From contig MFSH01000002.1 of assembly GCA_001784875.1 (NCBI GenBank), forward strand, positions 1,220 to 65,219: a stretch of 64,000 nucleotides of DNA, in the 5' to 3' direction. This document shows positions 14,641 through 31,597 of this stretch, one piece after another; the stretch's first letter is position 1; every line of letters starts with the position of its first letter. The stretch is from Candidatus Moranbacteria bacterium RIFOXYB1_FULL_43_19. GTDB taxonomy: Bacteria > Patescibacteriota > Minisyncoccia > Moranbacterales > UBA11712. A program made the position numbers and the translations under genes. A model generated the notes under the pieces. It saw nothing but the letters and a program-made list of their open reading frames with translations. It did no database searches and had not been told where the DNA came from.

Positions 14641-14862
14641 GCGGAGACGACCCTCTGAATAATCTCGTATATTTTTTCAATCTTCGCTGGGCGGGCTACT
14701 CGGGTCTAGAACCCGCTCTCTTCAAGCATTCTAGGGCGTTTTTGACGATTCGTCCAGCATAAGGATTTGAGGTGTTCGGGTCTCAATTTTGAAAACAAAA
14801 TGAGACAAATGAGACACAGGACAGCCCGTGTCTTATTTTAGGAAATAAGACAGCAGAGTGTC

Positions 14863-15942
14863 TCATTTTCTAAAGTCTTTTTCAATAAGCTTTCGGAGGT
14901 TTTCTTCGCCTTCTACGCCCCTAAGGCGACCTTGAAGGAATCCAAGGCGGTATCTGACTCCGTCGCTCATTAGACGCCAATTTGTCGGCTTCAGAGCCTT
15001 CTTAAGAAGCCTTTGGAGATCGTGGATACTATCATATTCTTTTCGGCCAGATTTGGCATCCTGCAGGTTAAATCCTAAAATGACATCTTTCTGAAGTTCG
15101 GGTTTTTCAAGTTCAAGTTTTATGTAGCCAGACTTTTCAATCAGTGGGTTGAGTAAATTTTGGATCTCTGGAATAGTGAGTTTTTTTATATTATCAACTG
15201 CGTTATAAAGTTCCTTGTTTTCTTTTTTATCTCTCCAGCTATCCACAATATTTTTCATCTCTTCTATCTGCCTCATAAATTCAGCCCCCTCGTGTTCGGG
15301 AATGCAATATTTCTTTCGATTGGCTTCAAAGTCAGGATCAATTATTTCTTCCTTCTTCTCATCTAAATCCATTCTATCAATTTCAACGTGGCCACACTTC
15401 GAGCAAGTAGATTCCGTGGTAATAATATTGCCTTTTCGGACACTTTTTTCTTGGACTCCTGCTTTACATTTTATGCAAGTCGGCTTGTATTCCCATTCCT
15501 TGCCGTTTTCCCAATAGGATCTGCGCTTACCACATTTCTTGCACTCGAACATAAAAAGGACTTCTTCCTTGCCTTGATGGTTATCCATAAGATCACGAGA
15601 AGTGCAGTTTTCCAAAGGCGAACTGCATCCGAGGCACCGAATTCCTTGTGGCTCTCTGGCATTGGCAAGTTTTTCGTCTGTTGCTTGGTCACGCTTCATC
15701 CATTCTTGAATCGCTTCTGATTTTTTAGAAGCGCAATCAGCTTTCATAATATTAAGAACAAGCTGGACAGCTACATTTTCAAAATATTCCTTTTTAATTT
15801 TTTCCAGCTTTTTTTCTTTGCTTTTTAATTTGGAAATGTCTTTAGGATATTTTGTGTTATCCCAACGCTGGCATTTTTCAATAGTGACCTTATCGTAAAG
15901 CTCACTATAATAAATATAATCTTTAAGATGTTGATACGACAT
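14863..15942 (-). CDS. Hypothetical protein with multiple CxxC zinc-ribbon pairs
   Basis: 359 aa containing CLGCSS, CKKCGK, CIKCKAG and CSKCGH. It is the last gene of the four-gene minus-strand operon, and its start overlaps the upstream stop. Confidence 0.5.
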   Translation of the reverse strand: MSYQHLKDYIYYSELYDKVTIEKCQRWDNTKYPKDISKLKSKEKKLEKIKKEYFENVAVQLVLNIMKADCASKKSEAIQEWMKRDQATDEKLANAREPQGIRCLGCSSPLENCTSRDLMDNHQGKEEVLFMFECKKCGKRRSYWENGKEWEYKPTCIKCKAGVQEKSVRKGNIITTESTCSKCGHVEIDRMDLDEKKEEIIDPDFEANRKKYCIPEHEGAEFMRQIEEMKNIVDSWRDKKENKELYNAVDNIKKLTIPEIQNLLNPLIEKSGYIKLELEKPELQKDVILGFNLQDAKSGRKEYDSIHDLQRLLKKALKPTNWRLMSDGVRYRLGFLQGRLRGVEGEENLRKLIEKDFRK

Positions 15943-16577
15943 TATTGCGTATTAGGAGAATCCGAATTTATTTCAATAAATTTATTAAAAGTAATTGCTT
16001 TCCCGCCTACTGCTTGCACTTTATTTCTAAAAGATTCGTCATTAGAAACTAGGATTAGATTTTTAACAATCGCAGTCTCACCAATGAGCGCATCTTCGAT
16101 ATGTTTTAAATTGCCATTCTGCAATGCTTCAAAATATGTTGTGCCATCTAATTTTGCCTCGCCATCTAATCTAGACACATCCAACACAAAACTTTCCGTT
16201 GGAATCTTAACGCCGTTTCCCCATTTGCATTCATTCCATTTTGAAACGCCCCAAACTGCTGCTTCTGTGGGAATTTTTACTCCATTACCAAACTTGCAAG
16301 CTCCAAATTTAGAAACACCCAGCATATTAGCTTCGGTAGGAATCATTTCTCCATTGAACCTGCTTAATATTAAAAGTAACTGATTTTTCTTTTCTTTTTT
16401 ATCCTCGCCCATAGATTCAATCTCATCTTCCTGAATGTGGGTAATATAATATTTCAAATTTTTCGGCAATAAATTTAAGTCTATTTTATTGTTCAATAGT
16501 TCATCGAATATATTGGTATCAAACATAAACCCTTGTGAGTTTTCTTGTCTTTTTGATTTGGTTTTTATTTTTGTCAT
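15942..16577 (-). CDS. PIN-domain protein interrupted by three ~23-aa tandem repeats
   Basis: The N-terminal FMFDTNIFDELL and C-terminal GETAIVKNLILVSNDESF are PIN-like. The middle has three IPTE..GVSK..KWGNGVK repeats, encoded by three 69-bp DNA repeats. Confidence 0.5.
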   Translation of the reverse strand: MTKIKTKSKRQENSQGFMFDTNIFDELLNNKIDLNLLPKNLKYYITHIQEDEIESMGEDKKEKKNQLLLILSRFNGEMIPTEANMLGVSKFGACKFGNGVKIPTEAAVWGVSKWNECKWGNGVKIPTESFVLDVSRLDGEAKLDGTTYFEALQNGNLKHIEDALIGETAIVKNLILVSNDESFRNKVQAVGGKAITFNKFIEINSDSPNTQ

Positions 16578-19500
16578 TTCTTATTTAGATCCCAATATTT
16601 ACTCGGATTTCTATTAAAAAGGTTCTTTATAATCTTCTTGGCATCTTTATCTGATTTGGATAATTCTCTTATGACAGAAACTATTGCATCTGATTCATGT
16701 AAATCTATTTCATTAGGAAAAGAAAAGAATATCTTTGCAACTTCCATAAATTTATCTTTTCCCATTTTTTCACTAATAAGTTCCAGGATCCTCGAATGAT
16801 ACAGTGTAGGATACCATCTCACTTCCGAAAGCTTTCCAGATTTCTTTGTTTGCTCATAGAAAATAGCTTCGTTTTTAAAACATTTAAGAAGCAAATTATA
16901 CCAATTGTTTATATGCTTGGCATCCTTTTCCTGAAGTTTTTTCTCTATGGTTTGGTAGATAAGATTGTATATGTTATGAGCATATTTATCAGTCATAAAA
17001 TCAAGATATTCAAGGGCAAGCTTCTCATATTCATCGACCTTGTTTTCTTTAACCGCAATTTCTCGCATTAGATGTTCGACGGAAGCAGCAAATTTGAAGC
17101 AACTGTCGGGATCTTGTTTCTGCATATCCTTTATTATTTCTTTTATTGCTTTTTTGAACTTCTTGTCGTTAAACTTACCTGGCCCGAGATCGTCATAAAG
17201 TCCCGGCAAACTAAACCTCCACTTTATGTAGGCATCTTTTCTGAATTCAGCAAGGTATATAAACAAGGATGCTGCTTCATCAATCGCTTCTATTGGAAGT
17301 TTTCTTAAATTTGTAACCAATTTCCATGAATCAGCCTCATTCAGTGATCTTATAGGATCAAAAGCATGCAATATACTTTTTGTCATTGCCTTTTGAACAT
17401 TAACTGGCCATGAAACAAGCCTATCCAGTAGATCAAAAGCTATTTTTTCCACTTTCTTTGACATTTTCAATGCTTTCTCTTTGTTATCATCAAAGAAAAG
17501 GGTGTTTCTATCCGAGGGCAAGACAGTCAGTCTGTTTCTTGCGAGTTGTCCGAGAGCAAAACAAGCCATGTGAATAACATAATAATTTTTGTCTTCGGAA
17601 AGTTTTTTTACCAGTTTAATTATTTCATTAAGTTGGCTCCGTCCTTCAAGAATCGGACATTTCATCAATGTCCATCCGCACCATCCCCTGACTGAAGTTA
17701 TTGTGCTTGGTTCTTCTCCCTGCTCAATTTTCTTGTGTTCATTATATTTATCTTCTTTATCATTAGGATCTTCTCCTGAAAGATATGGATCGGGATCATT
17801 AATAAAAACTTTTATAATTCTTATCGCCTTATCTATTTGTTTATGGGCAGCCAATCTCACCGCAAATTGAACGAATGCAGAACGACAACTATCATCATAA
17901 AATCTCTGGTAAATTTTTTTGATATCATTTCCAGTGGATTTTAGATATGGATCTAGGGCATCCTTATAAATTTTATTCAAAAATGTTAAGTCGGTAGCCT
18001 TATCATTTCCTCGGTTATTAAATAGACTATAAGCAAATATTATTTGCTGACTTTTATTTAACCTTTTCTCTCCTTCCAAATCCCTAAGTATTTCGAGCCC
18101 TTTAGAGTAATCTTTATTTAAAATGTCATGGAGTAATCCCGCTACATCGTAAGCACCAAATGCGTCTCCTTTTTCTGATTGGACATATTCACTTTTTAAA
18201 AAAGATTTAAATAATTCAACAGAAAAATCACTATCAACATCCAAAAAAGCTCTAATACTCAAAACAGAATCAATTTCAAGTAAGCGATGTTTATAATAGT
18301 CCGGGCTAGCAAACCATTTTTTTAGCTCCGCTTTTGCTTTAGCATGACCATTCTTTGCAAGATTAGTTATGATCTGCTCTACAAATGGATTTACAGGCAC
18401 TCCATATTTTTTTGTTGTTAACTCAACCAGCCTCCATTTTTTGTCGTCGATTAAGTCACTGCCAACAACTGCTTGATAAATCAAATCAGATTTGTGCGGA
18501 ATGCCTCTCCTAGAGAGGATGAGTTCCTTTAGAATTTCAAATGCTTCTCCAGACGTTTTTTTATCAGCACTGGCATATCTTTTTAATACAATATGATAAA
18601 CAGAACGATTAAGAAAATCTGGTCTTTGTTTTGAAACCGGTTTTGTAATTACTTTATTTTTTGCTTTTTTATCGGTCTTACTCAGGCATCTTTCTTTGAT
18701 AAAATTCCAGCAATCATTTTCATTTTTTGTATAATATTTATCAATAGCATTAGTAAATACATTGACAAAATGACGATCATATACATGATGCGAACCGCTG
18801 AATGATATACCTCCACCAGAATGTTCCCAACCATCAAAGCTTATATTTTTGCTGTATGTTTTATAGAACTTGTCATATTGGTTAACGACTTCCTTAACCA
18901 ACCCTTCGAAACGGTTGAGAAAATCTTTCCCCTTAGTTAATTTATTAATCCAATCAATAAGAATGTCAAAAACTTCCTTGGGTGAGTAATGACTAAATTC
19001 GCTGTCGTCTTCAATAATATTAAAAACATTTATAATCAAACGAAATGTTTTTTCTTCAATATTGGGGTCTCCAATATTATAAATTTTATGCAATAACTTG
19101 CAGATCTGTTCTTTTTCCCATTTTCCATGATCAAAGTCGTTGTCTTTAATATAGAAAAACTGCTGACCATCAAACGTTAATAAATCCTTTACAATAATAA
19201 ATGCATCATCAAGATACTTTTTCCCATTTTTACTATCAATAATTTTTGTAAGTATTTTAATAACATCAACATCAAAGAAATCTGAGCGATAAAAACTTCG
19301 ACTTGTTTTAGTGTATTTTTTTATGTATCCAAGCACATATTTTATATTTTTCTCCGTTTGCAGATTATTTTCAAAAACGTCAAAAATACCAAATGTAAAA
19401 TGATACACCTTATTCAACTGCCATAACTTATCCCATTTTTTTAGATCAAGTTCGGTTCGTGTTTTAAGTCTGTCCATGGCAAACGACATTAAATCCCAAC

Positions 19501-20236
19501 GAATAGAAAAAGCGGATATCGAACGACTACCTAATGTAATTTTCCCATTACTATTAACAATCTTTTCTAATGCTACAAATTGTTCCTCTCTCTTTATTTT
19601 TAGATTAAAATAATCACTACTTGTTTGGATTTCTTCTTTAAATTTTTCTATTTCTTCAACAATATTATTTCTACTATATGTCGCTCCACTTGCTGATCCT
19701 TTATAAATTTTTTGAATCAAAATATTATCAACAAATCTTTTGATATCCTCCGGTGGAAGCCAAAAATTGATTAGTTCTGCAAATAGAGAATAAATTACAT
19801 TCTCGTTAAAAGCTGCTGGAACTACCCAAAACTGAACTTTTGGCAGAAGAGATAATAATTGAGCTGAATAACCCTTTTTAACAAATTTGTTTTGAAGTTG
19901 TTTAAAATACTTAACATTATGAACATCGGAGATTAAGTCAGTATTCGCTTTACTGCATATAATAAGTACTTCATCTTTGTCGCCTAGTGATCCTTTTTTT
20001 ATAATATTTTCCAATATCTCCTTTAATTGTGGGTAGCTAAACTTTTCTTTTCTATCTTTTGATTCACAAATAATCTTTTTTCCATCATCGAAAACAATAT
20101 TGAAGTCCTCAAAATTTGCTGCTTCGAGCTGAATAGATAAAAATTTTGGATCACGGAGATACTGAAAGAACAAAGACATCGCAGCCCATGCCTGTGAATT
20201 TATTCCCTTATAATTATATTGTCCGGCTTTGCTCAT
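16574..20236 (-). CDS. Large (1220 aa) hypothetical protein with an N-terminal PD-(D/E)xK-like motif and a long alpha-helical-repeat body
   Basis: The N-terminus carries FEDFNIVFDDGKKIICESKD (a D...E-x-K pattern). I find no Walker A motif. The gene is very AT-rich. A 4-nt overlap with the downstream PIN gene suggests translational coupling. Confidence 0.5.
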   Translation of the reverse strand: MSKAGQYNYKGINSQAWAAMSLFFQYLRDPKFLSIQLEAANFEDFNIVFDDGKKIICESKDRKEKFSYPQLKEILENIIKKGSLGDKDEVLIICSKANTDLISDVHNVKYFKQLQNKFVKKGYSAQLLSLLPKVQFWVVPAAFNENVIYSLFAELINFWLPPEDIKRFVDNILIQKIYKGSASGATYSRNNIVEEIEKFKEEIQTSSDYFNLKIKREEQFVALEKIVNSNGKITLGSRSISAFSIRWDLMSFAMDRLKTRTELDLKKWDKLWQLNKVYHFTFGIFDVFENNLQTEKNIKYVLGYIKKYTKTSRSFYRSDFFDVDVIKILTKIIDSKNGKKYLDDAFIIVKDLLTFDGQQFFYIKDNDFDHGKWEKEQICKLLHKIYNIGDPNIEEKTFRLIINVFNIIEDDSEFSHYSPKEVFDILIDWINKLTKGKDFLNRFEGLVKEVVNQYDKFYKTYSKNISFDGWEHSGGGISFSGSHHVYDRHFVNVFTNAIDKYYTKNENDCWNFIKERCLSKTDKKAKNKVITKPVSKQRPDFLNRSVYHIVLKRYASADKKTSGEAFEILKELILSRRGIPHKSDLIYQAVVGSDLIDDKKWRLVELTTKKYGVPVNPFVEQIITNLAKNGHAKAKAELKKWFASPDYYKHRLLEIDSVLSIRAFLDVDSDFSVELFKSFLKSEYVQSEKGDAFGAYDVAGLLHDILNKDYSKGLEILRDLEGEKRLNKSQQIIFAYSLFNNRGNDKATDLTFLNKIYKDALDPYLKSTGNDIKKIYQRFYDDSCRSAFVQFAVRLAAHKQIDKAIRIIKVFINDPDPYLSGEDPNDKEDKYNEHKKIEQGEEPSTITSVRGWCGWTLMKCPILEGRSQLNEIIKLVKKLSEDKNYYVIHMACFALGQLARNRLTVLPSDRNTLFFDDNKEKALKMSKKVEKIAFDLLDRLVSWPVNVQKAMTKSILHAFDPIRSLNEADSWKLVTNLRKLPIEAIDEAASLFIYLAEFRKDAYIKWRFSLPGLYDDLGPGKFNDKKFKKAIKEIIKDMQKQDPDSCFKFAASVEHLMREIAVKENKVDEYEKLALEYLDFMTDKYAHNIYNLIYQTIEKKLQEKDAKHINNWYNLLLKCFKNEAIFYEQTKKSGKLSEVRWYPTLYHSRILELISEKMGKDKFMEVAKIFFSFPNEIDLHESDAIVSVIRELSKSDKDAKKIIKNLFNRNPSKYWDLNKK

Positions 20237-20238
20237 TG

Positions 20239-21333
20239 TTATTTAAATTCAAAATAAAAATGTATAGCGTTGTTTGATTCAAAATCCAATGCAGCCAACT
20301 CTTTAATCGGTAAACTAGCTAGTAATAAATTATCGGATGGACATAAAAAAGATACAATTCCTTGCGGATGGGAGAGGCAAAAATCTTTTATAATGTTAAA
20401 TAAACATTGCATATCGGTGTTTATTTTAAACAATTCAATCAAACTAGCTTTCTTCCTATCAATTATTTTCCGATATTCATTAATATCAAAAATCTTTTTT
20501 TCTGCGATTGTCACTTTTCTCACTGTCTCAACTTCCGGGTTTAGTTTTATTTTCAAATCATCGTTTTTTACCGAAGCATCAATGTATGGATAAGCGTTTA
20601 TCGAAAGTGCACTTAGATCATTGGCATAAAAAATAAATTGATGGGAATTCGTGCTAAAACTAAATTGGGGCGGATTAGATGGATCATCAGAAGAAATTTT
20701 TTCTATTTTTATATGCAACACATCATCTACTAATAAGCTATGCTTTGCATCCCTTTCCCTTATATAGGAACGTTTATGTAAATAGCCATCAACCGACTCT
20801 TTTTCTAATTCATTCTCAATTTTCAATACTATTTCCCCGTGCTTACTCTTATCTACTGAGGATGCATTTGGAAAAATATCATCTGCATCAGAAATATTTA
20901 AATGGGGAATTTTGTCCTTCAAAAAATCGAAATCCCATAACACAATCTTAAATGGAAACTTATTAATAACATTCAAACTTGTTAATCTCTCAAAAAAAAC
21001 CGTGTTACTTTTATATCTCTTATGCGGAATAAAAATGCAGAAAACATCAGGATAATAGCTATTCCCCATAGACATTATCTCTAAAATCTTATCACTAAAA
21101 TCGGAAAACTCTATTTCGGATATATTCCTATAATCTTTGTTATGCTTTAGCCGATTATAATCTTTACATTCAAACTTCCAGAGATACTCTTTCCCTTTTA
21201 TTTTAAAATTAGCATATGCATCATATCCGTTCTGTAAACCTGAACGATTAGGCCAATAAAGAGAAGTGAAGATATTTCTCATTATGTTTGCCAAATTTTT
21301 TTCTAATTGTTGGCCACTACTCATATCTTGCAT
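20239..21333 (-). CDS. Hypothetical protein with an N-terminal PD-(D/E)xK-like (restriction-endonuclease-like) motif
   Basis: 364 aa. The N-terminus GYDAYANFKIKGKEYLWKFECKDY is paralogous in pattern to the start of the 1220-aa protein. It is the first gene of the operon. Confidence 0.45.
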   Translation of the reverse strand: MQDMSSGQQLEKNLANIMRNIFTSLYWPNRSGLQNGYDAYANFKIKGKEYLWKFECKDYNRLKHNKDYRNISEIEFSDFSDKILEIMSMGNSYYPDVFCIFIPHKRYKSNTVFFERLTSLNVINKFPFKIVLWDFDFLKDKIPHLNISDADDIFPNASSVDKSKHGEIVLKIENELEKESVDGYLHKRSYIRERDAKHSLLVDDVLHIKIEKISSDDPSNPPQFSFSTNSHQFIFYANDLSALSINAYPYIDASVKNDDLKIKLNPEVETVRKVTIAEKKIFDINEYRKIIDRKKASLIELFKINTDMQCLFNIIKDFCLSHPQGIVSFLCPSDNLLLASLPIKELAALDFESNNAIHFYFEFK

Positions 21334-21407
21334 GTTTTGTTAAAAATTAGATATGATAGCCTTTTAGCTACTATTAGTTTATAACTTAAAAAACTAGAAG
21401 TAAAATA

Positions 21408-21436
21408 TTGCGTTAAGTTAAAAAATCTGCTATAAT
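21408..21436 (+). promoter_or_regulatory. Sigma70-like promoter (TTGCGT-17-TATAAT) in the divergent intergenic region
   Basis: Near-consensus -35/-10 hexamers with a 17-nt spacer. It points toward the ParB-MTase gene. A GGCAC-AATAA-GTGCC hairpin followed by a T-run lies at 21599-21623. Confidence 0.4.
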
Positions 21437-21705
21437 ACATACAGTTCTTTCAATTATGCACAATTTAATCAGACCGCTAATCTCGATTCGAAGAGGCTAA
21501 GCGGATGGAGAAAATATCCTTTTGAACCTTTTGCTATCTTTTTTCACAAGAAGCTTGTTTCATGGGATATGTAAAAAACTAAGTTATTAATGGAGTACGG
21601 CACAATAAGTGCCCCGAGTTTTTTACGTATCTTATAGAATAAGCTTCTTTTTGTATAAGAAAACGGAAAAACTCAAAGTTCAAGCTAATTATTAACACGA
21701 AAACT

Positions 21706-23028
21706 ATGGACTCTGAGTTATCAACGAAAAATAGCGATTCTTTAAAAGTGCCTTTAATTTGGCACACTGAGAAAAAAAGGGTTAGTGATCTCCTTCCTTA
21801 TGAACGTAATCCTCGCACTATCAGCGAGAAGCAGCTCAACGATCTGCGGCGCAGTTTTGAGAGATTTAATCTTGTGGAGATCCCGGCAATCGACACGGAC
21901 GGAAAAATTGTGGCCGGACATCAGCGCATCAAAGTTATGCAGATTCTTGGCCGTGGCCAGGAAGAAATCGACGTTCGCGTGCCTAATCGGAAACTCACCA
22001 AGGAGGAGTATGAGCAGTATCTTCTAACAAGCAACGCAACAGGCGGCGAATGGGATCTTGAAATTTTGAAAGACTTCGACGTTGAGGTGCTTTTGGACGT
22101 AGGATTTGATGACAGCGATATCGCGAATATTTGGGACGATTCTCTGGAGGTCGAGGATGACGAATTTGACGTACAAAAGACACTGAAGGAGATAAAGGTA
22201 CCAATGACTAAGCCCGGAGACCTTTACCAGCTAGGAGCACATTTGCTGCTTTGCGCCGACGCGACCGATGCAACAGTTATCGCACGACTCACCGATAAAC
22301 AAGAAGTTGTGATGATATATTGCGATCCGCCTTACAATATTTCTCTTGATTATGATAAAGGCATCGGGACGGCGGGAAAATACGGAGGCATTCGGACGAA
22401 CGACAAAAAGTCCTCTGGGGAATACAGAGAATTTCTCAAGCGGACGATTATGAATGCTCTAAGTATTTCCAAGATTGACGCTCACATCTTCTATTGGTGT
22501 GATGAAAGTTATATCGGAATGCTTCAGGATATTTATCGTGAGATTGGAATCAATCAGAGGCGTGTGTGTTTGTGGATAAAAAATAATGCTAATCTGACCC
22601 CGCAAGTGGCTTTCAATAAAGTTTACGAAAGCTGCATTTACGGGACTATTGGTAAACCGGGCCTTTTTTCCCAGAAGAACCTCAATGAAGTTCTCAACAA
22701 AGAAATCGGGACGGGAAACAGTGTTTTGGATGATATTTTGGATATCATCGACATTTGGATGGCTAAAAGGTTACCTACGCAAAACTACGAACATCCTACG
22801 GAAAAGCCCCTTACCCTGCATGAAAAACCGCTTCGGCGATGCACTCAAACAGGAGACATTGTTCTTGATCTGTTTGGTGGATCTGGATCCACTCTTATCG
22901 CCTGTGAGCAGATGAAACGCAAATGCCTCACAGTCGAATGGGAACCCGTATTTTGCGACCTCATCGTAAAAAGATTCGAAGCGGCAACGGGAGAAAAAGC
23001 CAAGCTCATAACCACACAACCGCAATGA
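21706..23028 (+). CDS. ParB-like nuclease domain fused to a DNA methyltransferase (DPPY-type N6A/N4C MTase)
   Basis: The N-terminus has ERNPRTISEKQLNDL...AGHQRIKV (ParB/Srx fold). The C-terminus has IYCDPPYN and the SAM-binding FGGSGST. Confidence 0.8.
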   Translation: MDSELSTKNSDSLKVPLIWHTEKKRVSDLLPYERNPRTISEKQLNDLRRSFERFNLVEIPAIDTDGKIVAGHQRIKVMQILGRGQEEIDVRVPNRKLTKEEYEQYLLTSNATGGEWDLEILKDFDVEVLLDVGFDDSDIANIWDDSLEVEDDEFDVQKTLKEIKVPMTKPGDLYQLGAHLLLCADATDATVIARLTDKQEVVMIYCDPPYNISLDYDKGIGTAGKYGGIRTNDKKSSGEYREFLKRTIMNALSISKIDAHIFYWCDESYIGMLQDIYREIGINQRRVCLWIKNNANLTPQVAFNKVYESCIYGTIGKPGLFSQKNLNEVLNKEIGTGNSVLDDILDIIDIWMAKRLPTQNYEHPTEKPLTLHEKPLRRCTQTGDIVLDLFGGSGSTLIACEQMKRKCLTVEWEPVFCDLIVKRFEAATGEKAKLITTQPQ

Positions 23029-23780: not shown

Positions 23781-23790
23781 CTTCACCACT

Positions 23791-24315: not shown

Positions 24316-24480
24316 TTATAAATATTCCCGAGTGTAGCTTGAAAATATTTATTCTTTTCTATTCTTTTTTGGCCCATACAAAGAGATTAAAATCTCGAAA
24401 AATGCACAAAGCAAAGCCTTTTTCAAAGCTTTTCAGGGTCTGGACAAGAGTTCGGGTCTGCGTCATTCATTGGTGTAGGT

Positions 24481-25875
24481 ATGAATAAAGCAACTATCCA
24501 ACAAAAAATCGACAATCAGCAGCAGGTTCAAATTGAGGAACCGCCGAAGGTCAAATACTGCCTCTACGCCAGAAAATCAACCGAGTCAGAAGAACGGCAG
24601 GTGCTTTCTATTGATTCCCAGGTAAAAGAAATGCTTCAAATCGCGGAGCGGGACGGGTTGGAAATTGTCGAGATTCGGCGGGAAAGCCATTCAGCCAAAG
24701 ATTCCGCCCAAAGACCGGTATTCAACGAACTGATTGAGGATATCAAAAAAGAAAGGTTTAACGGTATTCTCACCTGGGCGCCGGATCGGCTGAGCCGAAA
24801 CGCCGGAGATTTGGGATCACTAGTCGACCTCATGGACCAAAAACTGCTGATCGAGATCCGGACATTTGGACAACAATTCAAGAACTCACCGAATGAGAAA
24901 TTTCTTCTTATGATTTTGGGATCGCAGGCGAAACTCGAGAATGATAACCGAGGCATCAATGTGAAGCGCGGACTACGCACTCGATGCGAAATGGGACTTT
25001 GGCCGACCATTGCCCCAACCGGATATCTCAATGAAAGAACCTCGGAGCGAAGCTGTCGAGTGATCATTGATCCGCAAAGAGGATCGGTAATCAAGAAGAT
25101 GTTTGAGAAGATGGCCTATGAAAAATGGAGCGGCAGGAAAATATACCACTGGCTCAAGTTCGAGCTCAATTTTAAAAGCAAAGGTAACAAAAATCTCTCG
25201 CTCGGGAATATTTATCGACTGTTGCAAATGTCTTTTTACTACGGACCGTTTGAATTTCCCCGAAACTCTGGCAATTGGTATCAGGGGAAGCATGAGCCGT
25301 TGATTACTAAAGAATTATTTGATCTCGTGCAGGAACAATTGAAACGTGACCGGATAGTTCTCGAAAGCCGGGAGTTCGCGTTTACGAAAATAATGACCTG
25401 CGGATTATGTGGATCGGGTATCACGGCACAGGAGAAATACAAGAAACTCAAAAACGGTAGCGTCAACAAATATATCTACTATGGTTGCACAAGATCGAGA
25501 GATAAATACTGCAAATGCGGATATATGCGGGAAGAAGAAATAATCTCGCAGCTGATACGAATTATCGATAAAATTGATATTCACGAAATTGGTATCAAAA
25601 AACAATTCCAGGAAGAAGTGGAAAGATTCAACCGCTTCCAGAGAATAGTTCTCCGTATGAACGGCAAGGAAAACGAAATCGACAAACTGCAAGAATTCGA
25701 TATGAAAATGTATGCTAAATATCTCCTCAAGGATGGGAGCATCACCGAGCAGAGAGAGCTCATTGCGACGATGAAAAGTAGATTGATTATCAAGAACCGG
25801 AAGGTGAGCCTGGAGCCGGAAAAAGTTGATGAAAAAGCAGAAAAGCGGTATATTGAAATTAACAATAATGCCTAA
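24481..25875 (+). CDS. Large serine recombinase (resolvase catalytic domain + recombinase domain + zinc ribbon)
   Basis: 464 aa. The N-terminal YCLYARKSTESEE...SIDSQ carries the catalytic Ser. The sequence RLSRNAGDL is present. The C-terminal zinc-ribbon cysteines are CGLCGS...YYGCTRSRDKYCKCG. Confidence 0.85.
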   Translation: MNKATIQQKIDNQQQVQIEEPPKVKYCLYARKSTESEERQVLSIDSQVKEMLQIAERDGLEIVEIRRESHSAKDSAQRPVFNELIEDIKKERFNGILTWAPDRLSRNAGDLGSLVDLMDQKLLIEIRTFGQQFKNSPNEKFLLMILGSQAKLENDNRGINVKRGLRTRCEMGLWPTIAPTGYLNERTSERSCRVIIDPQRGSVIKKMFEKMAYEKWSGRKIYHWLKFELNFKSKGNKNLSLGNIYRLLQMSFYYGPFEFPRNSGNWYQGKHEPLITKELFDLVQEQLKRDRIVLESREFAFTKIMTCGLCGSGITAQEKYKKLKNGSVNKYIYYGCTRSRDKYCKCGYMREEEIISQLIRIIDKIDIHEIGIKKQFQEEVERFNRFQRIVLRMNGKENEIDKLQEFDMKMYAKYLLKDGSITEQRELIATMKSRLIIKNRKVSLEPEKVDEKAEKRYIEINNNA

Positions 25876-26011
25876 ACTTACGCCTCCGGCGTAAGCATGG
25901 CGCAATATCGAAATCCTACGTGAATAGAGACGGCCTCATGGTCGGCACTTATTCACGTAGGTCGATGTTCCGAAAGGACATCGGGCAGTTCGAAAGGATT
26001 GTCGCTGCACT

Positions 26012-26434
26012 GTGGGGCCTTTTGTGTACCCCGTTGCAGTGAATCTAGATATTTTTATGGAATCTTGCACGGAATTCATCCAAAGAAAAAATAAGCAATT
26101 CAGTCAGGGAAACCTGATAGCTATGAAAGACGTGGGAAGAAAAGGAAAACACTTCTTTAAGAGAGAAGCCTGGACTTTCATGCCCCAAGGAAACATTGAT
26201 AAGAAAGTTTTCATCTTCGAAAGGTTGAGAGCTGTCAAAATCGAAGGTGAAGTTGCCTATCGCAACACAACCACCGAAGATGTCGAATACCGAATCGGAT
26301 ATTACATCGTCGGTCAGATTGGAAGAAAAAAAGACGTGTGGACCTGGGGGCAATTTTGCCCGATGATTCCGAAAGATGATTTTGAAAAATTGATAAACAA
26401 AGCAAGAGAAGACGGAGTAATTCTTAATACATAA
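26012..26434 (+). CDS. Hypothetical protein
   Basis: 140-aa ORF with no recognisable domain. The start is uncertain. Confidence 0.3.
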   Translation: MGPFVYPVAVNLDIFMESCTEFIQRKNKQFSQGNLIAMKDVGRKGKHFFKREAWTFMPQGNIDKKVFIFERLRAVKIEGEVAYRNTTTEDVEYRIGYYIVGQIGRKKDVWTWGQFCPMIPKDDFEKLINKAREDGVILNT

Positions 26435-26451
26435 ACCATAACCATAAAAAA

Positions 26452-27066
26452 ATGGAACAAAAAAGTGAACTAGCGGGACAAACGAAAAAATGTCCCCAAT
26501 GTGGAGAGGAGATTTTAGCCTCCGCCAAAAAGTGCAAACATTGCCAAGCAGATCTGCGCAATTGGTTTGTTAAGCACAAGATAGCCACGGCAATATTAGC
26601 ACTACTGGTTTTGATAGTCATCATAAGTGCCGGCGGGAAGAACGAAGAAGAAAACAAAAACATACCCGCGTCTTCAAATGCTGAATCTAAAAGTACTGCT
26701 CCCTCCAAGAAAACCGTGCCGTTGGTCAACGATCCAACTATCAAACAAATCGGTAGCATTCCTGCTGATTACATCGGCCAATCTTTTGTTCTAAAAGTAA
26801 ATGCAAAAACAGCTGACTATTACAATTATGGATTCGATGACGAGACGAAATATTATGCACTGGAGATATGGGACGATTCGGTGGACGGAGATTTGGACAG
26901 CATTTACGCCTACGTCGACAAAAACGACACCAATAAACAGCTGGTAAATCAACTTCTTGATTCCAGCGTTCAGCTGGAAATCAACGCTTCGATACCGAAA
27001 GCCAAATACGAAAGCGGATCGAACGCTTTTATGAAAATCGATAGCTGGAAGACGCTGGGAAATTGA
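26452..27066 (+). CDS. Membrane-anchored zinc-ribbon protein (hypothetical)
   Basis: The N-terminal CPQCGEEIL...CKHCQ is followed by one transmembrane helix and a Ser/Asn-rich extracellular part. Confidence 0.45.
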   Translation: MEQKSELAGQTKKCPQCGEEILASAKKCKHCQADLRNWFVKHKIATAILALLVLIVIISAGGKNEEENKNIPASSNAESKSTAPSKKTVPLVNDPTIKQIGSIPADYIGQSFVLKVNAKTADYYNYGFDDETKYYALEIWDDSVDGDLDSIYAYVDKNDTNKQLVNQLLDSSVQLEINASIPKAKYESGSNAFMKIDSWKTLGN

Positions 27067-27295
27067 GAAAAAAATACCGCCCGTCAAAAACCAAGTCGGC
27101 CAAGATCATAAAACGGCAAAAAGAAGCTATCGCAGAACAGCTAGCTTCTTTTTTCTTTGAGTTTTGGAAAAGAAGAAATAGGACAAAAAGAAAGTGATAA
27201 ATCTTTAGCAGGTTCAGAATTTCTTGAATAATTACATGCTTAGTGATAACATAAAATTAGCTAAAAAACCTTTATTTATGGCTTGAAAAATAATT

Positions 27296-28546
27296 ATGGC
27301 TACTAAGTCTCTAAACAAAAGTCTGCACAAGGCGAGCCAAGCGAAGAACGATGAGTTTTATACCCAGCTTGGTGATATTGCCAACGAGCTTAAGCACTAC
27401 CGCGACCAACTTCGCGGCAAGGTGATTTTTTGCAATTGTGATGATCCGTTTGAAAGCAATTTTTTCAAATATTTTGCCGCCAATTTCAATACGCTAGGTC
27501 TTAAAAAACTTATTTCTACCAGCTTTAGTGGTTCACCAATTGTGGGACAACAAATGCTTCCTGGTTTGATGGAGGGTTTAAAAAAAGCAGAAAAGAAAGA
27601 GCCGTATGTGGTGGAGATTAACGAAGTCTCCGACATGAACAAAGACGGGGCGATAAGTTTGGACGACGTAGAGCATTTATTGAAGCATGACAAGAATGTT
27701 GCGACGCCACTTAGAGATGGTGATTTTCGTAGTGAAGAATGTGTCAAGTTTCTTAAACAAGCGGATATTATTATCACTAATCCACCATTTAGTCTTTTTC
27801 GTGAATTTGTAGCGCAGCTAGTAGAGCATAACAAAAAATTTCTTATTATCGGGAGCAAAAACGCCATAACCTATAAAGATATTTTTAAATTGATTAAAGA
27901 AAATAGGTTGTGGCTCGGCTATGGCTTTGCTGGGGGTAATGCTTATTTCAAAATTCCGCCAGAGAAAGCGCGCGAGTTTGCGGCTGGTGTATATGACTCA
28001 AAAACTGGCCTTGTAAAATTTCGCAATGTCGGTTGGTATACAAACCTTTATGTAGATAGGTCTGAAAACCCACTTACGCCATATCTCACCTATAAGCAAG
28101 GCCGCAAAAAAGGACTTTATCCGAAATATGACAACTATGATGCTATTGAAGTATCGAAATTAGCTGAAATCCCAATTGACTATGATGGCGTAATGGGGGT
28201 TCCAATAACCTTTTTGGATTATTGGACACCAGATAGTGGTATAGAAATAGTCAAATTCAGAAAAGGCAATGATGACAAAGACCTAGCGTTTACGAGAGAG
28301 AGTACAACCGTACTTCAGAATACTCATTCGCTATCGTCGGATCAAACCGAGGAGTTGACCAAGACCCAAACGGCATCTATGGCAGAGGAACAATGCTCAA
28401 CGGAAGGGAAACATTCAAGAGATTATTCATTAAACGAGTTTGAAATTTTGGGAATTGCTAACTCGGCACGATGGATAGGTTGCGAATTGTATACGATTAT
28501 AGACGGGAGAAAAATTTACAATAGGATTATAATTAGACGAAGATAA
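27296..28546 (+). CDS. N6-adenine DNA methyltransferase (gamma-class, NPPF motif), orphan/partnerless arrangement
   Basis: 416 aa with the DEFYTQ block and the catalytic motif IIITNPPFSLF. Confidence 0.7.
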   Translation: MATKSLNKSLHKASQAKNDEFYTQLGDIANELKHYRDQLRGKVIFCNCDDPFESNFFKYFAANFNTLGLKKLISTSFSGSPIVGQQMLPGLMEGLKKAEKKEPYVVEINEVSDMNKDGAISLDDVEHLLKHDKNVATPLRDGDFRSEECVKFLKQADIIITNPPFSLFREFVAQLVEHNKKFLIIGSKNAITYKDIFKLIKENRLWLGYGFAGGNAYFKIPPEKAREFAAGVYDSKTGLVKFRNVGWYTNLYVDRSENPLTPYLTYKQGRKKGLYPKYDNYDAIEVSKLAEIPIDYDGVMGVPITFLDYWTPDSGIEIVKFRKGNDDKDLAFTRESTTVLQNTHSLSSDQTEELTKTQTASMAEEQCSTEGKHSRDYSLNEFEILGIANSARWIGCELYTIIDGRKIYNRIIIRRR

Positions 28547-28550
28547 TAAT

Positions 28551-29648
28551 ATGAAAATAGAACTCAAAAATATCAAAATACGCGACGTGGTGAAGGGCTA
28601 CAAAGACAGTGGCGAGAGTGGAGTGGTTGGCTACAGCGGCAAACTCAACATTCGTCCGGCGTTTCAGCGCGAATTTATTTACGGCCAGAAAGAGCGCGAT
28701 GCTGTTATAAGGACAGTACGGTCTAGCTTTCCGCTCAACACAATGTATTGGTCGGTGGATAGAGACGGCGGCTTTGAACTCATGGACGGCCAACAGCGCA
28801 CTATTTCTATTTGCCAATACGTCACAGAGATTATCCCAATCAAGTTTGATGACGGCTACGAATTGGCATTTAATAATTTAACCACCGACCAGCAAGAGAA
28901 GATTTTGAATTACGACCTTTCCGTCTATATCTGCGAAGGAACGGAAAGCGAAAAACTTGCGTGGTTTCGAACAATCAATATCGCAGGCAAGCCATTGACC
29001 GATCAGGAACTCTTAAACGCCATGCACACTGGACCGTGGCTTGCCGATGCCAAACGCTGGTTTAGCAAGACAGGTGGACCGGCGTATCAGATTGGCGAAA
29101 ATTATGTAAACGGTTCGCCGATTCGACAAGATTATCTCGAAAAGACACTTGACTGGATTTCGGACGGAAAGATTGAGAATTACATGAGCCGCCACCAGCA
29201 AGACAAAGACGCGCAGGAGTTGTGGCAGTATTTTCAAGAGGTCGTAGCATGGGTTGAGCGCGTATTCCCCGAGTATCGAAAAATTATGAAGGGCTTAGAA
29301 TGGGGGCGACTTTACAATGAGCACAAGGGTGACAAATTAAATGCGGCAAGCTTGGAAAAACAAATTGCGGAATTGATTGAAGATGACGAAGTAGATAATA
29401 AGAAAGGTATTTATGAGTATCTTTTGACCGGAGACGAGAAGACGCTCAATCTGCGCGCCTTTGATGAAAAGACAAAAGTAACGCAGTACGAAAAACAGAA
29501 AGGGATTTGTCCGGTATGCAAAAAACATTTTGAGATTGAGGAAATGGAGGCAGACCACATCGTCCCATGGCATTCTGGCGGAAAAACTGTCGTGAAGAAT
29601 TGTCAGATGTTGTGTAAGCAAGATAACCGGACCAAGTCGGGAAAATAA
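28551..29648 (+). CDS. DUF262 (ParB-like, DGQQR) + C-terminal HNH nuclease protein, GmrSD/SspE-like type IV restriction-type enzyme
   Basis: The N-terminus has FQREFIY...MDGQQRT. The C-terminus has CPVCKK...ADHIVPWHSGGKT...NCQMLCKQDN (HNH). There is a 5-nt gap to the upstream MTase. Confidence 0.7.
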   Translation: MKIELKNIKIRDVVKGYKDSGESGVVGYSGKLNIRPAFQREFIYGQKERDAVIRTVRSSFPLNTMYWSVDRDGGFELMDGQQRTISICQYVTEIIPIKFDDGYELAFNNLTTDQQEKILNYDLSVYICEGTESEKLAWFRTINIAGKPLTDQELLNAMHTGPWLADAKRWFSKTGGPAYQIGENYVNGSPIRQDYLEKTLDWISDGKIENYMSRHQQDKDAQELWQYFQEVVAWVERVFPEYRKIMKGLEWGRLYNEHKGDKLNAASLEKQIAELIEDDEVDNKKGIYEYLLTGDEKTLNLRAFDEKTKVTQYEKQKGICPVCKKHFEIEEMEADHIVPWHSGGKTVVKNCQMLCKQDNRTKSGK

Positions 29649-29669
29649 ACAAATTAATTTTCTGAATGC

Positions 29670-30194
29670 ATGAGCAAAATAAAAATTTCATTGGACTACA
29701 GCATTCCGAAAGAAGACCGTAAAAAACTTATAAGTATAGTCAAGAAGGCAGATGCCGGCGCAGAAGTTACCGAGGGTGATCTTAGCGCAATGGGAGGCAT
29801 CACATGGTATCCGAGAGACTTGATTATTTTTGTCGCAAGTCTTACTGCAGCAGGCTTTTTTGCTGCATTAGGGAAAGATCTCTATATTCAATTAAGAGAT
29901 CGAATAAAAAAACTTCTTTCAGAGGATCAGCCCAAGGCTGGGGCGATATATTACTCATATCTGGCTTTCGATATTGGAAGTACGGTCTTGTATTTTGAAG
30001 TTGACAGAATAAATGTGTATTCAATTGATAGGGCCTACGAAAAAATAATTGAGGATTTTCCCATTATAAAAAAAGAAGTTGAACGACTCATTCAATTCAA
30101 ACCTAATAAACTCACAGGTAAGTTTGATAGCATTACATTCATTTTTGATGATTTGGATGATCAGTGGATTATTGCTCATTTCAATAAATATTAA
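29670..30194 (+). CDS. Hypothetical protein
   Basis: 174 aa with one hydrophobic segment and no known motif. Confidence 0.35.
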   Translation: MSKIKISLDYSIPKEDRKKLISIVKKADAGAEVTEGDLSAMGGITWYPRDLIIFVASLTAAGFFAALGKDLYIQLRDRIKKLLSEDQPKAGAIYYSYLAFDIGSTVLYFEVDRINVYSIDRAYEKIIEDFPIIKKEVERLIQFKPNKLTGKFDSITFIFDDLDDQWIIAHFNKY

Positions 30195-30980
30195 GTGAAT
30201 AGTACAACTGCGAGAACTGTTTCAAGTTTTATGTATAAAGTAGAATCTATAAAGAAAATTGAAAACAGTTTAAAGGAACTATTTCCCGATGAAACAAGAT
30301 ATATAGGACGACTCTCCGAAGCAATTGCATCTCTTTATGCAAGACAGAAAGAAGTCGCCATCGCAGAAAGCAAGCTTTCCAGAGCTAACGACATTTTTTT
30401 CGGAGGATTTGTAAATTTTTTCAAGCTATTGTGGAAAAATCTTACAAAATCAAATACATTATCTGAATGCCAACAACAATTTTTCGACAAATATATTTCA
30501 TATACTCAGGGGCTTTACGGAGTCTTAAGTGCAACTATACTCTTTATCAAAGAGACAGAAGGTGTAGATAAAAGTAATATTTCAACCGGCACTAGCACAA
30601 AGAAATTTTTAGAGAGTTGTTTGGGCCAAGATATAATTGACGAATCAACATTTAATCTCTTATATCAGACAACAATTATTAGGAGTCTGACATCGGATCA
30701 TATTCAGGATGGTTTGATGACATGGGGCACTGTCAGTTTCAACACAATTGGTCATCGCAAAGACAAGATCATTGAAACCCCGACTGAATTCGCATCCATG
30801 TATACACTTATTATTTGGCCCATGAAGTCTTACGATGAATTAAGGAAAGACACTCAGGCGCAATTAGAAAGATTGCTTTTTACGGATGTTCCTTTGCCAT
30901 CTTTCTTTTGTCCCCATTTTTCACATATTACCCAGGCATATTCGAATTTACTTGCAGGTTTTTCCAATCGTAAAAAGTAA
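30195..30980 (+). CDS. Hypothetical protein (GTG start, or ATG at 30231)
   Basis: 261 aa. It abuts the previous ORF, so the two are probably co-transcribed. Confidence 0.35.
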   Translation: MNSTTARTVSSFMYKVESIKKIENSLKELFPDETRYIGRLSEAIASLYARQKEVAIAESKLSRANDIFFGGFVNFFKLLWKNLTKSNTLSECQQQFFDKYISYTQGLYGVLSATILFIKETEGVDKSNISTGTSTKKFLESCLGQDIIDESTFNLLYQTTIIRSLTSDHIQDGLMTWGTVSFNTIGHRKDKIIETPTEFASMYTLIIWPMKSYDELRKDTQAQLERLLFTDVPLPSFFCPHFSHITQAYSNLLAGFSNRKK

Positions 30981-31065
30981 TACAGGTTTTACACTTGTAG
31001 CTATATTACAGCGGTGAAATCGAAAAAAAATAATAAAAACAGAGATATAACCAACTTAGAAATAA

Positions 31066-31257
31066 ATGACCGAACCTTCAAATGATTTTGTTTTGTATAT
31101 TCAAAAAATGGTTAAGGAGAAGACCGGAAAAGAGCCGACATATCAGGAAGCAAAAGAGGGAGTTGATAATCTGATTGGTTTTTTTGATTTGTTATTGCGA
31201 ATCGATCGTCGAAATAACAGGAGAGAATATAAACAAAACAAACCAATCAAGAAATGA
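31066..31257 (+). CDS. Small hypothetical protein
   Basis: 63-aa ORF, weakly supported. Confidence 0.2.
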   Translation: MTEPSNDFVLYIQKMVKEKTGKEPTYQEAKEGVDNLIGFFDLLLRIDRRNNRREYKQNKPIKK

Positions 31258-31431
31258 AGCTGGATTGTTTGTTTGATCAATCAAAAAACAGCAATTCTAG
31301 CGCTGTTTTTTTTGATTATCCCTTAATTGGTTCCAATTCCCGGACACCCTCGGCCTTTTGTGGCCCAGTATGGCTTCCGGGAAAATACCTTAAGCATGCG
31401 GAGATCTCGCGTCTCCTCGATACTGAAGGCT

Positions 31432-31509
31432 TGGTGCGGGGCCGACGGGACTCGAACCCGCGATCTTCTCCGTGACAGGGAGACGTGATAACCGCTACAC
31501 TACGGCCCC
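31432..31509 (-). tRNA. tRNA-Asp (GTC)
   Basis: Cloverleaf: acceptor GGGGCCG/CGGCCCC, anticodon stem TCTCC/GGAGA with loop CTGTCAC, T-loop TTCGAGT. Confidence 0.8.
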
Positions 31510-31523: not shown

Positions 31524-31597
31524 TAGCGGCGAGTGGACTCGAACCACTGACCCCAGCCTTATGAGTGCTGTGCTCTAACCAGCTGAGCTACGCCGCC
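31524..31597 (-). tRNA. tRNA-Met (CAT) elongator type (could be tRNA-Ile2/lysidine)
   Basis: GGCGGCG...acceptor with a G1-U72 pair, D-loop AGCTGGTTA, anticodon loop CTCATAA, T-loop TTCGAGT. No encoded CCA. Confidence 0.75.

Follow-up and report, generated by a model that had tools for sequence, protein, structure and literature searches.

The question raised by this locus is whether the accessory DNA beside a tRNA-Asp gene of Candidatus Moranbacteria bacterium RIFOXYB1_FULL_43_19, a Candidate Phyla Radiation (CPR)/Patescibacteria bacterium from Rifle groundwater, is one element or several, and what inserted it. The window analysed is a 64,000-nt stretch of contig MFSH01000002.1 (1,220–65,219, forward strand), and all positions without a locus name refer to it. 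CPR/Patescibacteria genomes are tiny, and no description of their integrative elements, nor of tRNA-targeting serine recombinases in CPR, was found in the literature searched. Positions 14,691–31,435 (16.7 kb) are probably a single integrative island, inserted directly after the 3′ end of tRNA-Asp by its own large serine recombinase (LSR), and the island family to which this recombinase belongs is widespread in CPR/Patescibacteria. The island consists of a conserved core between two variable cargo arms, with a low-GC operon on the left and, on the right, a LOOT RNA, small genes, a predicted restriction-modification pair and three unassigned genes (Table 1). As a serine-recombinase island it is of a type already known; what is unusual is the targeting of tRNA 3′ ends, the apparently tRNA-mimicking attachment site of the element (attP) and the associated orphan RNA.

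A preliminary description made from the sequence had proposed an acquired, mobile-element-type island here, and composition, comparison with a relative and homology to a sister element all bear this out; its borders essentially hold (14,690 and 31,435), and the sequences that it quoted are all present where it placed them. G+C content is 0.429 and 0.444 in the two flanks, 0.333 over 14,690–21,500, 0.437 in the core and 0.398 over 25,876–31,435. In the sliding-window check that it had suggested, the proposed shift in strand and composition was seen (G+C 0.33 vs 0.43–0.44; coding-strand change at 21,333/21,706): tetranucleotide distance to the flanks has its maximum at 16–22 kb (0.41–0.45 vs 0.13–0.21 in flanking windows, i.e. 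2–3-fold over background) and stays slightly elevated to 32 kb. The closest genome without the element, a Moraniibacteriota bin (L020; 74–82% protein identity), shares the tRNA-Met/Met/Asp cluster and the 159-aa gene next to it, with the radical SAM (rSAM) and cupin genes ~8 kb away; the intervening DNA is wholly different and the rSAM-cupin unit is inverted. The island is accessory, because L020 retains the cluster and the rSAM/cupin genes with unrelated DNA between them and because none of the island genes was found in 80 rSAM loci.

The right end is marked by a junction conserved across the family. Among 82 related recombinase loci fetched for comparison (83 recombinase sources were used for the LOOT counts below), a tRNA gene lies downstream of, and convergent with, the recombinase in 44, at a distance of 118 nt to 8 kb, and upstream in one locus only; the downstream genes are mostly tRNA-Ser, with tRNA-Asp, tRNA-Trp and tRNA-Gln also represented. 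A conserved junction adjoins one of these four tRNAs in 35 related loci, whereas all 30 control tRNAs lack it, and an nhmmer profile built from the 35 loci matches the window at 31,404–31,465 (E 2.2e-10). The motif, GGCACTCGGGTC-nn-CCGATAA (GGTC-nn-CCGATA), places CCGATA at a fixed ~14 nt from the tRNA 3′ end, with a spacing that is constant irrespective of tRNA type and recombinase distance; TATCG[GA] is found 8–22 nt after the end of 33/50 Ser/Asp/Trp/Gln tRNAs in recombinase loci, vs 0/30 tRNAs in 1.26 Mb of control CPR DNA. The right arm travels with the element, because L102, whose recombinase is 85% identical, carries nearly the same 40-nt arm next to tRNA-Ser(gga). With the arm assigned to the element and the tRNA end to the host, the junction is attR and the DNA between recombinase and tRNA is internal cargo. 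The recombinase lies 118–183 nt from the tRNA in nine related loci and 0.7–8 kb from the end motif in most; the edge position that the preliminary description expected of it is therefore no rule in a family with 0.1 to 8 kb of cargo between recombinase and tRNA-side end.

At the left end, GGCGGGCTACTCGGGTCTAGAACCCGCTCTCTTC (14,690–14,723) had been taken for a degenerate tRNA T-arm/acceptor-like fragment with about 75% similarity to the 3′ half of tRNA-Asp. It is a real border feature, but not a decayed tRNA-Asp copy: similarity is 24/34 ungapped or 27/37 with one gap (~71–73%), which alone is not above chance (a coding-region site at ~50,001 scores higher), the Rfam tRNA model gave no match there at E ≤10, and the nhmmer junction profile misses it. 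The fragment gains its significance only from comparison with related elements. The most informative of these, L191, was reached via a 76%-identical homologue of the 1220-aa protein of the left arm, and is bounded by tRNA-Ser(gct) plus a right arm on one side and by a pseudo-tRNA end on the other, with tRNA-Arg(ccg) 15 nt beyond it. The pseudo-tRNA end is precisely where L191 and the window begin to match (14,728–14,869, 76.8% identity over 142 nt, E 6e-24, blastn); the outer flanks are unrelated. No other observation argues more strongly than this breakpoint for an element start at 14,691. Both ends are thus defined by a breakpoint against independent insertions, the left by the pseudo-tRNA end shared with L191 and the right by an arm found at a different tRNA in each element.

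The pseudo-tRNA end recurs beyond these two elements. A search with the 23-mer GCGGGCTACTCGGGTCTAGAACC (≤6 mismatches) gave eight sites beyond the window in 1.04 Mb of recombinase loci, one of which (L158) is a genuine tRNA-Arg 3′ end, compared with two in 1.26 Mb of controls, both with six mismatches and random-looking. It stands alone (attL-like) on the plus strand in L137, L169 and L106, where it lies 1–9.7 kb upstream of the recombinase with unrelated DNA before it, and is fused to the right arm (attP-like) in L099 and L136/L138, to which a weight-matrix scan for the right arm adds L137/L140; in that scan the arm is followed at some sites by a degenerate tRNA-like end (e.g. GCGGGCCACTCGGGTTAAGTACC in L099). 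TCGGGTC boxes also occur in the attP-like sites of L099 and L136. Judged from these sequence comparisons, the left fragment appears to be an element-borne mimic of a tRNA 3′ end, common to elements at different tRNAs. The only match to the pseudo-tRNA motif in the viral collection was contig L099, which has defence genes and no virion genes. At four sites (L137, 122 and 12,899; L136, 15,489; L099, 7,286) the right-end motif is fused to the pseudo-tRNA end and another methylase-terS module follows; such sites look like tandem arrays in which a new element has entered the tRNA-mimicking left end of a resident one.

Repeats of the conventional kind are missing from the borders. A repeat search over 14.0–32.6 kb returned low-complexity families and no border repeats, and no inverted copy of the right-arm motif was found at the left end. 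The inverted repeats reported at 14,790–14,860 are present, nested at 14,812–14,862, but form the terminator-like hairpin of the minus-strand operon rather than a border structure.

By its domains, the product of the gene at 24,481–25,875 is a large serine recombinase, as had been proposed, with predicted recombination activity: all three LSR domains score above their cut-offs (PF00239 Resolvase, 1.4e-21, 77.6 bits, cut-off 23.3, residues 28–172; PF07508 Recombinase, 3.2e-12, 47 bits, cut-off 21.1; PF13408 Zn_ribbon_recom, 1.4e-7, 32.2 bits, cut-off 25.3). It matches PHROG 95 ‘integrase’ (3e-62) and is homologous to SPbeta SprA/YokA (9dxh) and the TP901-1 integrase, with an N-terminal YARKS motif that aligns with the SprA/YokA catalytic region. 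Homologues number at least 8000 at E ≤1e-30; the closest 120 are 67–100% identical, and all source-named ones among these are from CPR. Across the related loci only four gene families recur, all other genes being variable: the recombinase, a (ParB-)methyltransferase (MTase) upstream of it in 35 loci, a terS-like helix-turn-helix (HTH) protein conserved beside the MTase in 31 loci, and a ~480-aa gene following the terS-like gene in 21 loci. The last, which the window lacks, encodes 479 aa with Terminase_6C in L103; a search of the viral collection gave no close relative of the L103 terL-like protein. ParB_N was found in the MTase of L103 and L191, with no ParB_N match in the window copy. Since related elements carry restriction-modification and other defence genes (Mrr, MmeI-type, type ISP and type III restriction systems, Shedu, reverse transcriptase, a UPF1-like helicase-nuclease and a STAND NTPase), the family is a vehicle for defence-type cargo.

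L191 also shows how the cargo is organised. Nucleotide identity between L191 and the window is 72% for recombinase plus LOOT, 73.8% for the gene after LOOT, 70% for the EcoRI-type methylase and 64% for the HNH endonuclease, whereas the 1220-aa gene (16,574–20,236; L191 10,934–13,651) is 87.6% identical; set against the ~72% of the recombinase region, this suggests recent exchange of low-GC cargo between elements. In L191 the restriction-modification pair lies in the left arm and cargo order differs from that in the window. Because L191 holds the same sets within one attL-attR unit, the window is read as one element with shuffled cargo, not two islands. L102 carries two tandem LSR genes (6,812–10,452; 85% and 56% identical to that of the window) with LOOT and a zinc-ribbon gene between them, the second ending 130 nt from tRNA-Ser(gga); these may be two stacked elements or a two-recombinase element like ccrAB.

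Under the proposed mechanism, attP of the circular form would join the conserved arm (GGCACTCGGGTC-nn-CCGATAA, ~14 nt from the crossover) to the mimic arm, which has the likeness of an acceptor/T-arm 3′ end (GCGGGC..CTCGGGTCTAGAACC), and attB would be a real tRNA 3′ end, with a reverse complement starting GCGGRG (Ser, Asp, Trp, Gln), plus its trailer. Crossover by the serine recombinase in or just before the common GCGGG would yield two junctions, attR (31,376–31,460; conserved arm and real tRNA) and attL (14,650–14,713; old trailer and pseudo-tRNA end), leaving the tRNA intact and making no long direct repeat. The sequence at 14,650–14,690 would have been the tRNA-Asp trailer before insertion. 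The predicted attP junction reads ...GTCTCCTCGATACTGAAGGCTTGG[T/G]GCGGGCTACTCGGGTCTAGAACC... and the predicted attB junction ...TATTTTTTCAATCTTCGCTGG[G/T]GCGGGGCCGACGGGACTCGAACC...; both the action of the recombinase on these sites and the position of the crossover are predictions, and the island may still be mobile. If correct, a tRNA-mimicking attP would let one lineage use several tRNAs and stack in tandem on its own left end. It would be unusual for serine recombinases to use tRNA 3′ ends by way of a tRNA-like attP arm, and such enzymes could supply integrases with conserved, predictable targets. An island type recognisable by its core, both its ends and a target rule could in turn help to mark out accessory DNA and the defence cargo within thousands of CPR bins.

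Table 1 Features of the island and its surroundings (window positions; aa, amino acids).
Feature	Position	Strand	Description
Left flank			Housekeeping genes: S16, trmD, ftsW, murG ... UMPH-1, radical SAM, cupin
Predicted attL, host-side arm	14,650–14,690		Sequence past cupin gene terminator; no homology to L191
Predicted attL, element-side arm	14,691–14,713	+	Pseudo-tRNA 3′ end GCGGGCTACTCGGGTCTAGAACC; TCTAGAACC replaces canonical T-loop TTCGAACC
Conserved left-terminal segment	14,714–14,869		Second TTCGGGTC box at ~14,782; 14,728–14,869 matches L191
Terminator-like hairpin	14,812–14,833	-	Serves four-gene operon (terminator scan)
Minus-strand block	14,863–21,333	-	Four genes: 359, 211, 1220 and 364 aa
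Cargo gene 4, low-GC operon	14,863–15,942	-	359 aa; CxxC zinc-ribbon-like motifs
Cargo gene 3	15,942–16,577	-	211 aa; weak PIN match (E 0.015, residues 153–185)
Cargo gene 2	16,574–20,236	-	1220 aa; predicted N-terminal Cap4/DUF4297-type PD-(D/E)xK fold, then ~1050-aa HEAT-like solenoid
Cargo gene 1	20,239–21,333	-	364 aa; directly upstream of 1220-aa gene; E-x-K (FECKD) motif
Divergent intergenic region	21,334–21,705		Between left-arm cargo and core operon
Plus-strand block	21,706–31,257	+	Two MTases, HTH protein, LSR, two small genes, EcoRI-type methylase, DUF262-HNH, three unassigned genes
N6/N4 DNA methyltransferase (core)	21,706–23,028	+	440 aa; Pfam N6_N4_Mtase 1.5e-27
Second N6/N4 DNA methyltransferase	22,923–23,780	+	Pfam 1.9e-31; likely start 23,025, giving 251 aa (public gene calls)
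terS-like HTH protein (core)	23,791–24,315	+	174 aa; HTH_Tnp_1_2 4e-4, under cut-off; PHROG terS families 1e-4
Large serine recombinase	24,481–25,875	+	464 aa
LOOT RNA (Rfam RF03000)	25,869–26,036	+	Rfam part 25,869–26,003; 3′ extension outside Rfam model
First gene after LOOT	26,012–26,434	+	103–140 aa by start codon; no library matches; 73.8% nt identity to L191
Zinc-ribbon protein	26,452–27,066	+	204 aa; Zn_ribbon_3 1.4e-5, under cut-off; PHROG 14275 9e-9
EcoRI-type adenine methylase	27,296–28,546	+	EcoRI_methylase 1.2e-122
DUF262(GmrSD_N)-HNH endonuclease	28,551–29,648	+	GmrSD_N 9e-15; HNH 1.6e-12; PADLOC REase_II 2.6e-134
Three unassigned genes	29,670–31,257	+	174, 261 and 63 aa; G+C 0.35; no match in any library
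Predicted attR, element-side arm	31,376–31,435	+	GTCTCCTCGATAC at 31,411–31,423, 13 nt before tRNA 3′ end
tRNA-Asp(gtc)	31,436–31,509	-	ARAGORN; Rfam tRNA 68.8 bits; intact; 3′ end is host-side arm of predicted attR
Right flank			tRNA-Asp, tRNA-Met, HTH gene, tRNA-Met, then hydrogenase-like genes

The two hairpins immediately downstream of the recombinase (CTTACGCCTCCGGCGTAAG, and CCTACGTGAATA...TATTCACGTAGG; 25,877–25,961), interpreted in the preliminary description as a hint that one element ends there, belong to LOOT, the palindrome being helix 1 and the 12-bp stem helix 3 of this RNA, with neither an att site nor a junction at this point. LOOT entered the literature as an orphan motif (Weinberg et al. 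2017, PMC5737381); its Rfam type is sRNA gene, and no function is given in the literature found to mention LOOT or RF03000. The window sequence at 25,869–26,003 fits the full 121-position model above the gathering score (64.9 vs 46.4 bits), and our own covariance model built from 17 copies (R1) scores it at 106 bits. With R1, LOOT was found in 35/83 recombinase sources, vs one strong and one weak match in 80 control loci, and the Rfam gathering score was passed by all nine copies that were rechecked. Six copies directly follow the recombinase, as in the window, 17 lie directly upstream of it in divergent orientation, and four are upstream of the methylase. In 27/33 evaluable copies a co-directional open reading frame (ORF) begins no more than 45 nt from the LOOT 3′ end (crude ORF calls, some loci redundant), and the genes that follow are diverse, encoding zinc-ribbon proteins, an OB-fold protein, DUF5655, a NucS-like nuclease or a type IIG enzyme; zinc-ribbon proteins recur directly after LOOT in L102 (64% identical to that of the window) and L180.

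The apical loop of helix 3 base-pairs with the 3′ tail of LOOT, and a U-run lies just beyond the tail. Complementarity of the tail is 9–18 bp in 17/17 copies, the resulting pseudoknot helix has compensatory changes in 6/8 pairs (81% of cells paired), and in the whole tested structure 86% of cells are paired vs 31–46% in slid controls. The link to a recombinase family, the place before a co-directional ORF and the 3′ pseudoknot with U-run, which lies outside the Rfam model, are new here. LOOT is a component of these elements and most likely acts in cis as a structured 5′ leader or attenuator of the first right-arm cargo gene; a trans-acting small RNA is a less likely alternative. A guide-RNA role, modelled on the bridge RNAs of IS110, was also considered, but few loci combine LOOT with a junction. 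A pseudoknotted leader might gate the expression of newly delivered, potentially toxic cargo, and the tie to the recombinase family and fixed place before cargo genes offer testable hypotheses for the function of an orphan RNA. The 11-nt sequence GGCCTTTTGTG, which in LOOT comprises the 3′ pseudoknot strand and U-run (26,016–26,026), is repeated at 31,352–31,362, ~75 nt before the tRNA-side end of the element (~0.005 such repeats expected between two 150-nt regions); it may be left over from a second LOOT 3′ end, may be a scar of recombination that brackets the right-arm cargo, or may be due to chance.

The four left-arm proteins have no significant match in PADLOC 2.0, Pfam, NCBIfam or PHROG, relaxed thresholds included, and a PDB profile search returned only an artificial alpha-repeat protein (E 0.12). 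For the 1220-aa protein, 132 homologues were found at E ≤1e-5, in CPR phyla, a Deltaproteobacterium and Margulisbacteria; of 120 listed, nearly all are full-length and free of Pfam domains. Residues E38, D44, E58 and K60 are invariant in the family. A model of the N-terminal part (pLDDT 83) best matches the Cap4 nuclease domain (TMq 0.64–0.67), then LmuA, HamA, NucS and MspJI, and in an AlphaFold2 model of a homologue (P0169; pLDDT 87.6) the solenoid matches CAND1 and karyopherins. Wherever examined, the gene is preceded by an adjacent gene for 205–364 aa (SLFN_AlbA_2, a weak Cap4_nuclease match, or unassigned), and it usually lies among restriction or other defence genes. In the window this neighbour is the 364-aa gene, in which FECKD, read by eye, may be a nuclease motif. 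The 211-aa protein may be a PIN-like nuclease in which a tandem repeat (GVSKFGACKFGNGVKIPTEA / GVSKWNECKWGNGVKIPTES) has been inserted between the PIN-like N- and C-terminal segments; a 33% homologue of the 359-aa protein adjoins the MTase-terS module in L145. Judged from its context only, the four-gene operon is a candidate defence system; it matches none of the known ones and has ~130 homologues across phyla.

The link to Cap4 (CBASS), LmuA (Lamassu) and HamA (Hachiman) is one of fold only. The N-terminal 150 aa are predicted to share their PD-(D/E)xK fold (Foldseek probability 1.0, TMq ≤0.67), with the acidic and lysine residues invariant in the 1220-aa family. However, no SAVED, SMC or helicase partner is present, the nuclease is fused to a ~1050-aa HEAT-like solenoid, and no Pfam or PADLOC model matches the 1220-aa protein. 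Between the operon and the core, an imperfect 44-nt inverted repeat (21,537–21,660; 75% complementary, 36-nt spacer) may be an operator or promoter element. In the right arm, the adjacent genes at 27,296–29,648 are predicted to form a conventional type II restriction-modification pair.

Taken as one proposition, CPR-wide islands that enter tRNA acceptor ends through a tRNA-mimicking attP, regulated by a LOOT riboregulator and carrying a new Cap4-like/HEAT-solenoid defence system, can be put forward only tentatively. Several observations weigh against parts of it or against the integration model. No empty site (attB) was found: all population contigs recovered via identical flanking proteins carry the island at 99.6–100% identity, and a scan of a genome collection gave relatives of at most 75% protein identity with rearranged synteny, so that the comparison of related contigs recommended earlier yielded occupied sites only, apart from the rearranged L020. 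The predicted attP of the window, which would mark an excised circle, is absent from the viral collection, and no recombination directionality factor was recognised. The terminase-large-like core gene is missing, and the window element may therefore be a decayed or non-autonomous copy. No inverted right-arm motif was found at the left end by mismatch scan, regular expression, local alignment in 24 loci or weight matrix; with no classical LSR site symmetry, the att architecture is drawn from comparative patterns only. The attP-like sites of related loci lie in long contigs full of defence genes and may therefore be tandem-element junctions rather than free attP. LOOT varies in position relative to the recombinase (six copies downstream, 17 upstream and divergent), and is not strictly tied to it: control locus L057 holds a strong copy (20,010–20,153; R1 68.7 bits) ahead of a gene whose repeat-rich product looks secreted, and the 10 kb upstream of this copy contain no recombinase. 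For the four-gene operon, no phenotype in phage defence is known. Two candidates were rejected: the best window match to the inverted right-arm motif (~50,022) lies inside a coding region and was taken as chance, and an apparent variant diverging inside the recombinase gene (contig L012) is a scaffold gap of Ns with no junction.

Some of these absences would also suit an island that arrived as described and has since lost excision and transfer, as a fixed defence island or decayed remnant, which is possible but not what we expect. Every public contig of the population carries the island unchanged, the terminase-large-like gene of 21 related loci is absent here, and neither a directionality factor nor an attP or attB junction was found; yet the recombinase ORF is intact, full-length and has all its domains, both junctions are preserved (the right arm nearly identical to that of L102, the left end 77% identical to that of L191), and the lineage has moved recently, because sister elements occupy different tRNAs in different genomes. 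Nor is a phage origin in the sense of a satellite or degraded prophage favoured. It would make the methylase/terS/terL module phage-derived and the recombinase a phage integrase, with packaging by a CPR phage or a remnant state, and we regard it as rather unlikely, though compatible with integration as proposed since it concerns the route of transfer. A ParB-methylase adjoining terS is a common phage arrangement, and terS-like PHROG matches, Terminase_6C in the 479-aa core gene of L103, the recombinase match to PHROG 95 and the listing of one related contig in IMG/VR all point the same way. Against this, no capsid, portal, tail or lysis gene was recognised in the window or in flanks of up to 10 kb at the related loci examined, the IMG/VR contig has defence-type genes only over the 20 kb read, and the terS assignment is under the Pfam threshold in a copy without terL; a prophage test of the region genes with Pfam and PHROGs gave no virion structural or lysis family, only the weak terS-like match.

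Two or more adjacent islands, with the first ending at the hairpins at ~26.0 kb, a separate second one at 26.0–31.4 kb, as had been suggested, and perhaps a third formed by the low-GC DNA at 14.9–21.3 kb, are improbable. The stepped G+C of the blocks (0.33, 0.44, 0.40) would fit such a patchwork, as would the 5.5 kb of extra DNA here compared with the nine loci in which the recombinase nearly abuts the tRNA, the higher L191 identity of the 1220-aa gene, suggestive of independent cargo exchange, and the occurrence of GGCCTTTTGTG at both 26,016 and 31,352. But the hairpins are LOOT, which is internal to elements; the conserved end motif is at the tRNA (31,404–31,435) with none at 26.0 kb; most related loci have 0.7–8 kb between recombinase and end motif; no second recombinase or att-like site occurs inside the region; L191 is a single unit with the same cargo sets; and cargo exchange between elements accounts for mosaic composition without separate insertions. 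It is very improbable that the left fragment resembles a tRNA by chance alone, or that an older tyrosine-integrase insertion, independent of the serine recombinase, left it as a scar in a tRNA. Its similarity to tRNA-Asp is at chance level, the Rfam tRNA model does not detect it, and tyrosine integrases classically leave a duplicated tRNA 3′ end (PMC8092301). However, the region encodes no tyrosine integrase (Phage_integrase domain), the fragment is unable to pair with the 5′ acceptor strand of tRNA-Asp, the same non-canonical motif marks the ends of related elements that lie at other tRNAs and also occurs joined to the right-end motif, and L191 homology begins exactly there. A single LSR-inserted island thus remains the preferred reading.

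This island shares features with several known systems. As in serine-integrase elements (phiC31, Bxb1, TP901-1, A118, SPbeta SprA), the LSR has catalytic, recombinase and zinc-ribbon domains, long direct repeats are missing from the junctions and the recombinase is encoded toward one element end. It differs in targeting the 3′ ends of several tRNAs, in an attP that appears to hold a tRNA-end mimic, in the lack of clear inverted-repeat symmetry and of phage structural genes, and in the short (464-aa) recombinase; in a survey of mycobacterial prophages, tRNA attB sites were used by tyrosine integrases (PMC8092301). Like SCCmec/Ccr cassettes, it is non-phage with variable cargo, is inserted by an LSR at the 3′ end of a housekeeping gene that is kept, and appears in tandem arrays, but it targets a tRNA where they use rlmH/orfX, its core is methylase/terminase-like and its host is a CPR bacterium. 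The best NCBIfam match of the recombinase is CcrB, at 105.6 bits, so far under the family cut-off of 900 that the protein is not a Ccr.

With tyrosine-integrase tRNA islands it has in common the abutting intact tRNA 3′ end, a tRNA-3′-like far end in the same orientation and accessory/defence cargo, but it has no tyrosine integrase, and the far copy is only 71–73% similar, has a non-canonical T-loop and appears to be element-borne. Pipolins (PMC11551731) and satellites of the phage-inducible chromosomal island type (PMC12829572) likewise combine a small core with exchangeable defence cargo, as seen in restriction-modification systems, Shedu and reverse transcriptases of relatives; the core here is LSR, methylase, terminase-like gene and LOOT, with no PolB or tyrosine integrase, in another host phylum.

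Two further features lie to the right of the island. A 225-aa gene with weak HTH matches only (31,588–32,265, minus strand) is located between the two tRNA-Met genes, which in L020, L103 and L110 are at most ~90 nt apart with no gene between them, and since the pair is uninterrupted there the gene looks like a separate small insertion. An IS200/IS605-type Y1 transposase gene (PF01797, public annotation; 39,645–40,310, minus strand) lies ~8 kb from the island.

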